A stretch of 60,131 nt of DNA from Candidatus Altiarchaeales archaeon (lineage in GTDB: Archaea > Altiarchaeota > Altiarchaeia > IMC4 > QMZM01), in contig JAHEXG010000003.1 in assembly GCA_023252215.1 (NCBI GenBank), positions 1 to 60,131 of the forward strand. The letters run 5' to 3'. The number at the start of each line of letters is the position of its first letter. Positions within the stretch are counted from its first letter, which is position 1. A model generated the notes under the pieces. That model saw nothing but the letters and a program-made list of their open reading frames with translations, was not told where the DNA came from and searched no databases. This document shows positions 1,077-10,877 of the stretch, piece by piece. The position numbers were made by a program, and so were the translations under genes.

Positions 1077-1114
1077 TTTCAAAACTGGGTGGTTGAAAAC
1101 CACGCGGTTTGGTG
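1077..1114 (+). repeat. HP-1 imperfect hairpin element, copy 1
   Basis: TTTCAAAACTGG-GTGGTT-GAA-AACCAC-GCGGTTTGGTG. Same flanks as the copies at 5970, 25869 and 38914. Confidence 0.8.
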
Positions 1115-1139
1115 TAGGGTTCAAATCCCTTCGTATTCA
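1115..1139 (+). pseudogene. Decayed duplicate of the tRNA-Trp 3' end (T-arm + acceptor strand)
   Basis: TAGGGTTCAAATCCCTTCGTATTCA versus the genuine GAGGGTTCAAATCCCTCCGTCCCCA (828-852), 20/25 identical. No matching 5' acceptor strand was found. Confidence 0.6.
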
Positions 1140-1238
1140 TGATTTTGCTCGAAGTGCCTGAGAACGGAGTTCAGTATCCAGACGTGAGATGTCCATTTTT
1201 CTTGTGATATATTAAATATATTAAAGATATATGCGAAA

Positions 1239-1973
1239 ATGGCCTCTCCTAAGTTAAGGAACGAAACGAAGAAAGAGATTTTAAGATATATTCAAGAAAA
1301 AGCAACCTCTCAAACTTCTTTATCTGAACTTGCTCGAGATGCAATAATTAACAAGTTTAAATCTGAACAATTTGCTGACAATGATGTCAGGGAAATAATT
1401 GATGAGCTTATAAACAAGGATAAGGCTGTTCATTCACATAAGGTTAAATTAGATGTAATAATTCCTTATGACCGAGTTACTAATTTTACTAGAGAATACG
1501 CACCTTACATGACCAAAGGAACAACATCCATAGCTGTTATCAGTTTAATAATTACTATCTTGTTTATATCCTACTTTGGAAGTACTCCCACTCAGTCAGC
1601 TATGACTCCAAATACCTCTATGATAAATACAAACTCCACTTTAACCGATCAAAAAAGTGAGACTGCTCCAAACTATGGAGCATTATATCTCATTGGGCTG
1701 ATGCTTAACTTTCTTTTCTATAGTATTATCTATATTTTATATGAACCAATACTACGTAGCCTAAAACTTGGAATAGTTAACAATCGTAGAATTAATGTAG
1801 TTATTATTTCAGTCCTACTATCATTGGGCTTTACTACAATTATTATTTATTCATTTACCTTCCTCAACCATGAATCTTTTACTACAAATCATTTTGCGGC
1901 GGGTGTTACTGCAGGAGCTGCTCTAGCTGCGGTTGTTATCTATATATTCTCAAAAGACTTTCATGTGTCCTAG
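1239..1973 (+). CDS. Hypothetical membrane protein (soluble N-terminal domain, about 4 TM segments) in a low-GC segment
   Basis: 244-aa ORF with hydrophobic stretches in the C-terminal half. The surrounding DNA (about 1140-2080) is visibly AT-rich. Confidence 0.5.
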   Translation: MASPKLRNETKKEILRYIQEKATSQTSLSELARDAIINKFKSEQFADNDVREIIDELINKDKAVHSHKVKLDVIIPYDRVTNFTREYAPYMTKGTTSIAVISLIITILFISYFGSTPTQSAMTPNTSMINTNSTLTDQKSETAPNYGALYLIGLMLNFLFYSIIYILYEPILRSLKLGIVNNRRINVVIISVLLSLGFTTIIIYSFTFLNHESFTTNHFAAGVTAGAALAAVVIYIFSKDFHVS

Positions 1974-7999: not shown

Positions 8000-8364
8000 G
8001 AGACGATCCTTACAGAATCCGCATTTTTTGGCTTGACCTCCAGCGCCCCCTTATACTCGTCCAACTCCCCGATAACGTCGACGCCGCACCCTTTAACTAC
8101 CCGGGAAGTCGCGTTGGCCATATAATAGCTCACAAAGACATCGATAACGCCGCTGCCATCGTCTACGGAAAATGTTACGCTCCCGCCCTTGAACTTGTAG
8201 ACCTCGGAAACATTGCCCCGGACATGAACCTGCCTGCCGATAGAACCAGAACCAAGCACGCCGATCTTTGAAACCGGCGGCTCCATAACCATGGAAGCAT
8301 ACGTAAAAATCAACAAGCCAAGCACCGAAACACCCAAGGCAACATAGACGATCCTGCCTGACAT
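7996..8364 (-). CDS. Membrane-anchored OB-fold (tRNA_anti-like) protein
   Basis: N-terminal TM segment, then the pattern VHVRGNVSEVYKFKGGSVTFSVDDGSGVIDVF...GELDEYKGALEV. Overlaps the Cas4-like start by 4 nt. Confidence 0.55.
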   Translation of the reverse strand: MSGRIVYVALGVSVLGLLIFTYASMVMEPPVSKIGVLGSGSIGRQVHVRGNVSEVYKFKGGSVTFSVDDGSGVIDVFVSYYMANATSRVVKGCGVDVIGELDEYKGALEVKPKNADSVRIVS

Positions 8365-8384
8365 CGTAAATGCCCGCCGGGTGC

Positions 8385-8543
8385 TTAAACCGATGCTTTT
8401 GCCGCTTTCTTCTTGTGCTTCCTGCGGATCTTATAGGTCTTCCCGCATCTCCTGCACTTCGTCGCACCGACAGGGTTCTTGGCGTTGCAGTTCATGCAGA
8501 TGCCTTTAAAGATCCTTGCCTCAGCCTCTAAAAACTTAGCCAT
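8385..8543 (-). CDS. rpl40e: Ribosomal protein L40e
   Basis: Manual translation [52 protein letters not shown]. Shorter than 60 aa, so absent from the track. Confidence 0.85.
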
Positions 8544-8589
8544 CGTTTCTGTGAAAATAAGATAGTGATTTGTGATTTAGAGCATTTAA

Positions 8590-8658
8590 ATCAACCTTCT
8601 GAAAGGTTGATCATCACTACGAGTATGTGGTACCTGAAGGTACCACAGAACGCATCAG
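8590..8658 (+). repeat. HP-2 double-hairpin module, copy B
   Basis: ATCAACC-TTCTGAAA-GGTTGAT..ACGAGTAT-GTGGTACC-TGAA-GGTACCAC-AGAACGCATCAG. Homologous to 24187-24253, with compensated stems. Confidence 0.7.
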
Positions 8659-8834
8659 TCGTCGGCCGACCCATCGAGCGAAGCGAGCATGGGTCCCAAT
8701 TTTTGTCCCTATGGGACATGTGCGTCGCACATTTTTCCAAGGCTTTTGCGCTTAGCGCATGCCTGCGGGCATCTTTTATTTTTAAGAAATGTCGGAAGGC
8801 CCGGCATGCCAGCAAGCTTGCTGGCAAAAAGGTT

Positions 8835-8981
8835 TAGCGGGGAGTAGATTTGAACTACTGACCTTCGGGTAACTCAGAAGTGTTTGTCTCATGAGTATTG
8901 CCTCTTATGAGCTTCGCCCGCGCCGAGCGATTTTACTCCTCATGCGCGTCCGACGAGCACTCCTGGCTGCTCAACCCCGCT
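8835..8981 (-). tRNA. Initiator-like tRNA-Met (CAU) with an interrupted anticodon arm (two putative non-canonical introns)
   Basis: A1:U72 acceptor AGCGGGG/CCCCGCT, D-arm GAGC-AGCCAGGAGT-GCTC, T-arm AGTAG-TTCAAAT-CTACT. Joining ..GTCGG + GCTCATAA + CCCGAAGGTC.. gives the anticodon arm TCGGG-CTCATAA-CCCGA with three G-C pairs. Confidence 0.55.
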
Positions 8982-9697
8982 GTATGTAAATCAATATTCC
9001 GTAGCACTTCTTGTCGGTGTTGAATATTGGTATTTGTCATATAATAACCAAGGTTTTTCCATATTTTGTACTTTGTTTCGTGTCTTGGGTTGTGGAATTT
9101 TATTTCATTTACCCATTTTTCAAGGATTTTTTTGCCGTTCATTTGTATCCTTATGCAGCCGTTTTGCTGGGCTGAAGTGATCGGCCGATATTCGAGGTTT
9201 GACAGGATTTCAAGTGTTTGTTTTCTCATCGGTGATGGGAGCATTTTTAGTTCTAGGCGGGGGTAAGCATGTTCTTTTTTGTTTTGCCTGTCAAAAATAA
9301 CGCATCCGTCGGTGTCAAACAGTCCTCTAAGGAAGTGTTTCTCCAAGCCTTCCTGGAAAATGAATGAGGGTATGATCGCCCGATCCCTCTTTGGCGAAGC
9401 AGCCATCCCCAGGTCCATTAAATATTCGTAAAACGGTTTTCCGAAATACATTAGTTCAAGGGTTCTTTCGCCGCGCTTAAATCGCAGGAGTGGTTCTTTG
9501 TCGAATAACCGGGTCATTAGCGGTCGTAAACAATTGGTGAAATATTCAAGGTTCTCTGACGCATCGCCGCTTATTTTCACCCGGTACTGTGTCTTGATCT
9601 TGTCCCCTGCTTTGCAATGATAACAACCAATTGATCCGTCGCCTAGTAAGGCACCTACGAATTCAGCGAGTTGAGCGTCTTGCTGGGGTTTTCTCAT
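8933..9697 (-). CDS. LAGLIDADG homing endonuclease (double-motif); the last 16 codons and the stop lie inside the tRNA gene
   Basis: Motifs FVGALLGDGSIG and FLRGLFDTDGCV. The ORF ends ...TAGLSSQECSSDAHEE*, encoded by tRNA positions 1-49. Confidence 0.75.
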   Translation of the reverse strand: MRKPQQDAQLAEFVGALLGDGSIGCYHCKAGDKIKTQYRVKISGDASENLEYFTNCLRPLMTRLFDKEPLLRFKRGERTLELMYFGKPFYEYLMDLGMAASPKRDRAIIPSFIFQEGLEKHFLRGLFDTDGCVIFDRQNKKEHAYPRLELKMLPSPMRKQTLEILSNLEYRPITSAQQNGCIRIQMNGKKILEKWVNEIKFHNPRHETKYKIWKNLGYYMTNTNIQHRQEVLRNIDLHTAGLSSQECSSDAHEE

Positions 9698-9801
9698 AAT
9701 CCTATTAAGTATTAGAATCCTAAATATGGGTTATTTTTGCACTCTAATTTTTGGATATTTTTAGTTCCCTGGGTCGATTATCTATATTGAGCGGGGTTTT
9801 T

Positions 9802-10275
9802 ATGACACGGGTGAAAAAGTCCTGGAAAGAAAAACTTTCCGATGACAAGGGCCTTCCAAGGATTGAGCAAATAACCGACAAGTTGAGCCCACGCTGGGGC
9901 ACGGGCACAGTAGTCATTCCCGCCCCTAAAGAGGTCGACGAATTCATGAAGAAAGTTCCCCGAGGCAATGTCACAACCATAAACGAGATACGCGAGGCGT
10001 TGGCAAAAAGGCATCATGCGACCATTGGCTGCCCCATTACGACCGGGATATTTGCATGGATCGCCGCCAACGCCGCCGCAGAAGATGCTGCTTCCGGCGC
10101 GGCTATCATTACTCCTTATTGGCGTACTTTGAAATCCGGCGGCGTTGTCAATGAGAAATACCCCGGAGGCGGCGAGGCGCAGAAGAAGATATTGGAGAGC
10201 GAGGGCCTGAAGGTCGTCAAGAAGGGCGGTAAATATACAGTAGAAGATTATGCGAAATATTTGGTTCGTTTCTAA
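9802..10275 (+). CDS. MGMT-fold / alkyltransferase-like DNA-binding protein lacking the acceptor Cys
   Basis: TINEIREALAKRH...IGCPITTGIFAWIA...ITPYWRTLKSGG resembles the MGMT C-terminal domain, with PCHRV replaced by PYWRT. Confidence 0.4.
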   Translation: MTRVKKSWKEKLSDDKGLPRIEQITDKLSPRWGTGTVVIPAPKEVDEFMKKVPRGNVTTINEIREALAKRHHATIGCPITTGIFAWIAANAAAEDAASGAAIITPYWRTLKSGGVVNEKYPGGGEAQKKILESEGLKVVKKGGKYTVEDYAKYLVRF

Positions 10276-10277
10276 AA

Positions 10278-10877
10278 ATGAAATATTGTCTTATACTTGG
10301 GATGATGGCTCTTGCATTGTTCCTACTGGGCGGATGCTTGTCTGCGACCACGCAGAATAATCAGACAGGTATTAAGAATGCTTCTGCGACGTCTATGCAT
10401 TCTACCGGAGGCCCGGCAGGTTTTGTTACTTATGAGAATCCCGCATATAAGATAAAGATACAATACCCCTCCTATTTGATGAGACAGGAAGAAACCACAG
10501 GGGACGTAATATTCTTCCTATCGCCCCAGGACAGCGCGACAGAACCCTTCCCCGCGACCGTCGATATCCTGGTACAGAACATGTCCGATCAGCCTATTAC
10601 CCTGGACGAGTTCACGAACCAGTCCATTGAAGCCATCAAGGAGTTTGTTCCCGATTATAATTTCTCTGATTCCCGGAAGGCAACCCTGGCAAAAGAAGAC
10701 GCATACCTGCTCGCTTATACCGGAATGCAGGGCCTGATAAGATCGAAGTGGATGTCGGTTTATACGATAAAGAACAATACCCTGTATCTGATAACATACG
10801 CCGCAGGGGCTGATAAATTCCCGGTATATCTGCCGACTGTGAGCAAAATGCTTGATTCGTTTGAGATAACTGATTAG
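10278..10877 (+). CDS. Secreted lipoprotein-like hypothetical protein (PsbP/DcrB-like fold suspected)
   Basis: Signal peptide ending LLGGC (lipobox-like). No recognisable catalytic motif. Confidence 0.45.
   Translation: MKYCLILGMMALALFLLGGCLSATTQNNQTGIKNASATSMHSTGGPAGFVTYENPAYKIKIQYPSYLMRQEETTGDVIFFLSPQDSATEPFPATVDILVQNMSDQPITLDEFTNQSIEAIKEFVPDYNFSDSRKATLAKEDAYLLAYTGMQGLIRSKWMSVYTIKNNTLYLITYAAGADKFPVYLPTVSKMLDSFEITD

Follow-up and report, generated by a model that had tools for sequence, protein, structure and literature searches.

A free-standing LAGLIDADG endonuclease gene flush with an intron-bearing initiator tRNA gene in an Altiarchaeales archaeon: a candidate for collaborative homing

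The stretch of DNA analysed here (the window) comprises 60,131 nucleotides of contig JAHEXG010000003.1 of a groundwater archaeon, Candidatus Altiarchaeales (assembly GCA_023252215.1; this genome is denoted G000, other G codes stand for related genomes and L codes for related loci), and carries a free-standing gene for a LAGLIDADG homing endonuclease, the open reading frame (ORF) of which runs directly into an initiator tRNA (tRNAi) gene interrupted by two introns. The evidence leans, if not strongly, towards the endonuclease gene and the tRNA intron at the non-canonical position 30/31 forming a selfish two-part unit that works by collaborative homing. By analogy with known systems, the target of the enzyme in related cells would be tRNAi genes without an intron, cleaved in the region of the anticodon stem (at about positions 28–31); repair from the cassette-bearing allele would copy the endonuclease gene and the intron-bearing tRNA together (co-conversion). 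In the host, the 30/31 intron would split the target of the enzyme, so that the chromosome would be protected, and the splicing endonuclease would remove the intron, so that the tRNA would still work. The arrangement found is that of collaborative homing, with a free-standing gene beside a gene containing an ORF-less intron, the two being co-inherited. A broader proposal, to which we give somewhat less than even credence, is that the 28/29–30/31 intron of archaeal tRNAi is the mobile partner of a single tRNAi-specific lineage of free-standing LAGLIDADG enzymes spread over five or more archaeal phyla; in that case, endonuclease-driven collaborative homing would be a general route to the acquisition and retention of protein-spliced tRNA introns at non-canonical positions in archaea.

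Association of the endonuclease gene with one tRNA and one intron position

A search of 61 Altiarchaeia genomes yielded 13 tRNAi alleles with the 30/31 intron and 36 others. An intact endonuclease gene lies beside six of the former, with a remnant beside one more, and beside none of the latter (0/36), where a broken copy is found in G005. Genome G039, which belongs to a different family, is the only member of its family with the gene and also the only one with these introns. The same association was observed in an independent sample of a Micrarchaeota order comprising 23 tRNAi loci, with the gene present at three of the four loci containing a 30/31 intron and at none of the 19 lacking it. The ends of the Micrarchaeota intron (ACG...GGGCGAA) are the same as those in G000. 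A spacer of approximately 90 nt between gene and tRNAi, which includes a TTATAAAAGG box, is conserved among gene-bearing alleles of Micrarchaeota (L134, L135, L059, L051 and L132) and also occurs where the tRNA has the gene on its other side; as it is kept in either arrangement, the tRNA promoter seems to travel with the unit.

Within the order to which G000 belongs, the endonuclease gene was found in eight of the 49 genomes searched and adjoins tRNAi every time. Comparison of the orthologous tRNAi loci, proposed in a preliminary description of this locus made from the sequence alone, revealed the gene to be present, broken, deleted or absent among related Altiarchaeales. In G001, of the same genus as G000, the same flanking genes accompany an intron-less tRNAi and 96 nt of native spacer, with no cassette. 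Only the cassette ends are left in G003, also of this genus, where an internal deletion has spared approximately 20 nt of the left end and the last ~200 nt, and in G005 a stop codon breaks the ORF. The cassette of G016 (762 nt) lies directly after the carB stop codon, 75 nt further upstream of the tRNA, is flanked by a 13-nt duplication and ends in a 4-nt AGCG vestige corresponding to the first four tRNA bases; G019, of the same genus as G016, displays a clean empty site. In G039 the gene is found at the 3' end of the tRNA, in convergent orientation. Within genera, the gene is missing, truncated or broken in G001, G003, G005, G009 and G019, and the cassette qualifies as a mobile element by its presence/absence polymorphism at one locus among close relatives, with decayed copies.

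Two further observations concern these sites. In the acceptor stem of the G016 tRNAi (L036, 1501–1653), a G7A change is compensated by C66T, and the T-arm differs from that of the genus mates G009 and G019; the allele looks mosaic. Among the contigs of four DNA runs that were compared with the region, those of one run from another study include a relative, 84% identical, that bears the gene, and a contig joining positions equivalent to ~8987 and 9871, which represents a gene-less relative; these contigs are from other strains or species and are no proof of homing. Carriage of the gene by viruses was also considered and rejected, since phage records gave no match and viral contigs only relatives with at most 34% identity.

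The association with tRNA genes extends well beyond this order. A scan of one genome per species identified 376 stretches encoding relatives of the enzyme, and the best 80 loci were studied; these include loci from Micrarchaeota, Woesearchaeota, Pacearchaeota, Nanoarchaeota, Aenigmatarchaeota, Nanohalarchaeota, metagenome-assembled genomes (MAGs) labelled Methanosarcinales and bacteria of the candidate phyla radiation (CPR). According to ARAGORN, a tRNA abuts or overlaps the 3' end of the ORF, in co-directional or convergent orientation, in at least 54 of the 80 loci, and T-loop motifs are found at this end in approximately 12 more. In 21 of the 80 loci the neighbour is tRNAi, which contains an intron at 28/29–30/31 in 18 cases. 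On a maximum-likelihood tree, the identities of the neighbouring tRNAs require 17 changes, compared with 29.5 when shuffled (0/200 shuffles as low), with the reservation that labels for intron-bearing genes were taken from ARAGORN and may be wrong for some rows. One supported clade, spanning five archaeal phyla, holds 17 of the 19 tRNAi-linked genes, and separate clades are associated with tRNA-Gln, tRNA-Leu and bacterial tRNA-Ser. The attachment of each lineage to one tRNA argues that the enzymes recognize tRNA gene sequence. One of the clades lies in CPR bacteria and one MAG labelled Gammaproteobacteria (L099, L113, L117, L119 and L121–L124), and its gene always lies directly upstream of an intron-less tRNA-Ser.

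The cassette, the enzyme and the tRNA

The features of the locus are collected in Table 1. The ORF extends from an ATG at 9697–9695 to a TAA at 8935–8933 and is part of a cassette of approximately 0.84 kb (9772 to 8936), consisting of a promoter-like region and an intact gene for a monomeric LAGLIDADG endonuclease. The 5' region of the cassette is homologous to those of the cassettes in G015, G020, G016 and G005, and its conserved box is likely to be the B recognition element and TATA box of the cassette.

Table 1. Features of the endonuclease–tRNAi locus, numbered from the first letter of the window
Feature	Position	Strand	Description
Endonuclease ORF	8933..9697	-	LAGLIDADG homing endonuclease, 254 aa; stop codon included
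LAGLIDADG motif 1	9632..9670	-	residues 10–22, LAEFVGALLGDGS, catalytic D20
LAGLIDADG motif 2	9302..9334	-	residues 122–132, FLRGLFDTDGC, catalytic D130
Cassette 5' region	9698..9772	-	left boundary ~9772, where similarity to the sister genome G001, which lacks the endonuclease gene, ends
Promoter-like box GAGTGCAAAAATAACCCATATTTA	9721..9744	-	24–47 nt upstream of the ATG; conserved in five cassettes
CCAATATT box inside the ORF	9023..9030	-	42–49 nt upstream of tRNA position 1
ORF/tRNA overlap	8936..8981	-	last 46 coding bases of the ORF, equal to pre-tRNA nt 1–46
Initiator tRNA(CAU) gene with two introns	8835..8981	-	147 nt
tRNA exon 1	8950..8981	-	positions 1–30
tRNA intron 1	8913..8949	-	37 nt, non-canonical 30/31, bulge–helix–bulge motif; holds the TAA of the ORF (8935–8933)
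tRNA exon 2	8906..8912	-	GCTCATA, positions 31–37, anticodon CAT
tRNA intron 2	8871..8905	-	35 nt, canonical 37/38, hBHBh' motif
tRNA exon 3	8835..8870	-	positions 38–73, no CCA encoded
Oligo-T run	8826..8830	-	5 nt past the tRNA 3' end; likely terminator

The claim of the preliminary description that the ORF is an intact, free-standing gene with both LAGLIDADG motifs is borne out. The two catalytic aspartates, one in each motif, are invariant in an alignment of 22 homologues, and the AlphaFold model (mean pLDDT 93.5, pTM 0.88) comprises two alpha-beta-beta-alpha-beta-beta-alpha domains, the arrangement that makes up the DNA-binding saddle of such enzymes. Foldseek matches at E about 1e-9 comprise I-Tsp061I, I-DmoI, PI-PfuI and I-OnuI-type enzymes, the first two, both from archaeal introns, being the best; I-DmoI was also matched in a profile search, and the bI3 maturase is another of the fold matches. 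The single protein scores 19.5 bits against Pfam LAGLIDADG_3, for which the cut-off is 22.5, and 22.7 bits when neighbouring in-frame segments are added; many homologues carry PF14528 or PF03161. The dN/dS ratio among the Altiarchaeal copies is 0.04–0.10, as expected of an ORF under strong purifying selection. The intact frame, the retention of the catalytic residues and this ratio identify the ORF as a working gene rather than a remnant, with a predicted DNA-cleaving activity.

The absence of a stop codon of its own, with the frame entering the tRNA gene and terminating at a TAA in intron 1, had been described correctly to within a base: the third base of codon 239 is tRNA base 1, codons 240–254 correspond to pre-tRNA nt 2–46 and the stop codon to nt 47–49. 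This arrangement results from the docking of the cassette flush against the 5' end of the tRNA. The tRNA-encoded tail was considered as a part of the enzyme and rejected. In G007, G015 and G020 the ORF enters the tRNA in another frame (..SGVEQPGVLVGRI) and stops in intron 1; the ORF of G016 ends at a TGA of its own, 75 nt before the tRNA, and has no such tail, that of G005 stops 18 nt upstream of the tRNA and that of G039 runs into the 3' end of the tRNA on the opposite strand. The model of the last ~14 residues is disordered (pLDDT 50–58). With differing frames, a separate stop in G016 and low model confidence, the tail, which is not conserved, does not belong to the enzyme and is a by-product of where the cassette lies. 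The preliminary description had named a conserved fold ending well upstream of the tRNA, together with a separate terminator, as evidence that would count against its reading. The first applies, in that the conserved part of the protein stops short of the tRNA: the core shared by the whole family extends to about residue 213, an additional Altiarchaeal stretch continues to ~236, and model confidence is retained to ~240. No separate terminator was found between the ORF and the tRNA.

The tRNA gene was reported neither by ARAGORN nor by an Rfam scan of positions 8000–10500, because it is interrupted by two introns, and it was read and spliced by hand. Splicing gives a 75-nt cloverleaf, classified as tRNA-Met by ARAGORN, with A1:U72, anticodon CAU and a GGG/CCC anticodon stem, which is identical base for base to the intron-less tRNAi of G001 and represents the sole initiator tRNA in the 1.55-Mb, 93%-complete assembly. 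Archaeal bulge–helix–bulge (BHB) introns are defined by a 4-bp helix between two 3-nt bulges that contain the splice sites. The pairing of both introns was assessed in an alignment of 11 homologous intron-bearing alleles from related genomes, with shuffled and slid sequences as controls. Intron 1 forms a 4-bp central helix (tRNA positions 25–28 with intron GGCG) and an adjoining 5-bp intron helix, which are 100% paired and show compensatory changes at two pairs, and the helices of intron 2, with its canonical 37/38 motif, are 93–95% paired; in every measure, the pairing of both introns lies above that of the controls. A gene for the tRNA splicing endonuclease (EndA) is present in G000 (contig C87). 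Judged by its sequence, the tRNAi is functional and its introns are real BHB introns that are predicted to be spliced, in agreement with the description of a functional, multiply interrupted tRNAi adjoining the ORF.

The CCAATATT box within the ORF, of a type that also occurs upstream of other tRNA genes in G000, is a candidate promoter that probably serves the tRNA itself; what is left of the cassette in G003 after the deletion still contains it. The oligo-T run past the tRNA is a likely transcription terminator, by analogy with known archaeal termination. With a probable promoter of its own for the tRNA, the endonuclease gene and the tRNA need not be expressed in turn, although RNase P cleavage of a read-through mRNA could still remove the stop codon of the ORF.

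Several additional features were observed in and around tRNAi genes. In the whole G000 genome, ARAGORN with canonical introns allowed detects only 23 tRNA genes, seven of which contain introns, and many tRNAs of this genome probably carry non-canonical introns, as tRNAi does. Three-intron tRNAi genes (30/31, 37/38 and T-loop) with no adjoining endonuclease gene are found in G019 (L035, 1501–1685), G004 (L032, 1501–1678) and G010 (L030, 1357–1532). Four introns interrupt the tRNAi of G058 (L126, ~1100–1400, minus strand) and G059 (L127, 1–250), from another order of the same class, including a 27-nt intron inside the acceptor stem (4/5) and a variant 30/31 intron. An insert of approximately 70 nt lies just upstream of tRNAi in G013 (L031, 1430–1500) and G044 (L039, ~1415–1500); it starts as a copy of tRNAi positions 4–20, continues with a conserved CCCYTTTAGAAAARGGTGTTGCATYCCC element, is found in two families and is missing from the sister genome G004, and resembles a small mobile element that makes a second copy of the tRNA 5' end. 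The spacer between tRNAi and rpl40e (8544–8834 in the window) contains two extra hairpin-rich inserts, of ~75–95 nt, relative to G001.

Three short sequence matches were examined and discarded. The 8-mer GGAGTGCT in the cassette promoter of relatives (GAGTGC in G000, within 9721–9744) equals nt 19–26 of tRNAi and was considered as an insertion relic or operator; cassettes of other phyla lack it, and it is probably due to chance. The same probably applies to an inverted AGCGGGGTT upstream of the cassette (9791–9799 in G000), which is absent in G003 and G001. In G003 (contig C26), the intron-1 junction has a second match, which falls inside a coding region and is due to chance.

Proposed collaborative homing and the alternatives

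A number of observations weigh against collaborative homing. The 30/31 intron occurs without the endonuclease gene in six genomes (G004, G010, G013, G019, G058 and G059), and therefore can persist alone and may predate the gene. Conversely, some family members stand beside intron-less tRNAs, namely L050 (tRNAi), the tRNA-Gln clade and all of the CPR-bacterial genes next to tRNA-Ser, and intron-based immunity therefore cannot be a rule for the whole family. The identity between endonucleases roughly tracks taxonomy (81% within the genus, ~60% within the family and 50% between families) and is similar to that of the neighbouring carB, and dS is saturated between genera, which indicates that the element is old; much of the pattern would follow from long vertical descent accompanied by losses, with no need for recent homing. 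Moreover, the genomes compared are related and the samples are not independent, and Fisher-type counts of the association between gene and intron overstate its support. With regard to splicing, the genome has one EndA gene, with a short open frame (195 aa), and the motif of intron 1 lacks an exon-side helix.

Of the other explanations, the one that survives best, which we consider unlikely, places the target at the tRNA border, comprising the acceptor stem and its flank, where it would be destroyed by the insertion of the gene itself, the introns being passengers or unrelated. The flush docking of the gene at tRNA position 1 in G000, G007, G015 and G020, and at position 73 on the other strand in G039, would be accounted for, as would the finding that AGCGGGG comes after the ORF on its sense strand in both arrangements and the many family members located by intron-less tRNAs, all of the bacterial ones included. 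This explanation meets a difficulty in G016 and in Micrarchaeota, where an intact gene lies 60–100 nt from the tRNA and the spacer–tRNA junction is untouched, so that border insertion cannot protect those genomes. Furthermore, the flanks of the tRNA vary between genomes and would make a poor target, and the occurrence of tRNAi-linked genes only together with the 28–31 intron in two phyla is left without an account.

It is rather improbable that the protein has been domesticated and is no longer mobile, serving its host in a maturase-like folding of the 30/31 intron or in the regulation of tRNAi. The strong purifying selection (dN/dS 0.04–0.10), the saturated dS between genera, the rough agreement of identities with taxonomy and the tight co-occurrence with one intron would all suit a host function of this kind, and LAGLIDADG maturases do exist, that of bI3 being among the fold matches. 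Six genomes nevertheless presumably splice the same intron without the protein, in a single-copy, essential tRNA, and the gene is missing, truncated or broken within genera (G001, G003, G005, G009 and G019); both catalytic aspartates are invariant, and the position and orientation of the gene relative to the tRNA vary.

The preliminary description had offered a choice between mutually exclusive expression of the two genes and a decaying remnant of an intron-borne endonuclease, which does not hold, and a remnant of an enzyme encoded in a tRNA or rRNA intron, the expression of which is blocked by the tRNA overlap, is very improbable: the ORF does lack a stop codon of its own, RNase P cleavage of a co-transcript would remove the one that it uses, and the closest solved structures are those of archaeal rRNA-intron enzymes, but the frame is intact with its catalytic residues kept and dN/dS is 0.04–0.10, the ORF lies 5' of tRNA position 1 and at least 54 of the 80 relatives adjoin tRNA genes rather than residing inside introns, the tRNA probably has its own promoter, true decay looks different (a deletion in G003 and a stop codon in G005), and no related intron of the kind suggested for the rRNA operons was found in G000, where the search covered the 23S rRNA, which has no interruption, but not the 16S rRNA, and no second LAGLIDADG gene was detected.

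Significance and relation to known systems

Ever since archaeal tRNA introns were catalogued, it has been an open question by which route they reach non-canonical positions and why they persist. To our knowledge, explanations published so far rely on intron transposition or on protection from integrating elements, with no agent identified. A specific agent is suggested by the present locus and its relatives, namely an endonuclease gene linked to a single tRNA and a single intron position; if collaborative homing is true, this gives a testable route for the spread and persistence of such introns. The analysis also brings to light a large family of proteins, as yet without a name, which occurs in DPANN archaea and CPR bacteria and is systematically linked to tRNA genes. 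This has consequences for genome annotation, because its ORFs extend into tRNA genes that standard finders overlook. In a full-text literature search, no publication turned up that deals with LAGLIDADG genes next to intron-bearing tRNAs of archaea.

Phage T4 SegB is a free-standing GIY-YIG endonuclease that is encoded in a tRNA gene cluster and promotes inheritance of the tRNA gene region. It shares with the present enzyme the tie of a free-standing homing endonuclease to a tRNA gene region, and differs in belonging to another enzyme family and to a phage system without introns. I-DmoI and I-Tsp061I, from rRNA introns, are similar in their monomeric two-domain fold, their catalytic motifs and their connection with BHB introns in stable-RNA genes; their genes lie inside the intron that is mobilized, whereas here the gene lies outside, flush with the tRNA, and the partner introns are only 35–37 nt in length.

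Collaborative homing has been described for phage group I introns (PMC3984707). There, as here, a free-standing endonuclease gene lies beside a gene with an ORF-less intron and is co-inherited with it, and the proposed logic is the same, an intron at the target of the enzyme making its carrier immune. In contrast to the self-splicing group I intron of phages, the intron in question is a protein-spliced archaeal BHB tRNA intron, the enzyme is of the LAGLIDADG type and resides in a cellular chromosome, and cleavage at the insertion site is predicted from the analogy. Models of tRNA gene disruption (Randau and Soll; Sugahara et al., 2012, PMC3293823) likewise tie the gain of tRNA introns to mobile DNA and hold that an intron shields the tRNA gene from further attack. 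These models rely on integrases and att sites; here, where no integrase is present, the mobile agent would be the endonuclease gene itself.

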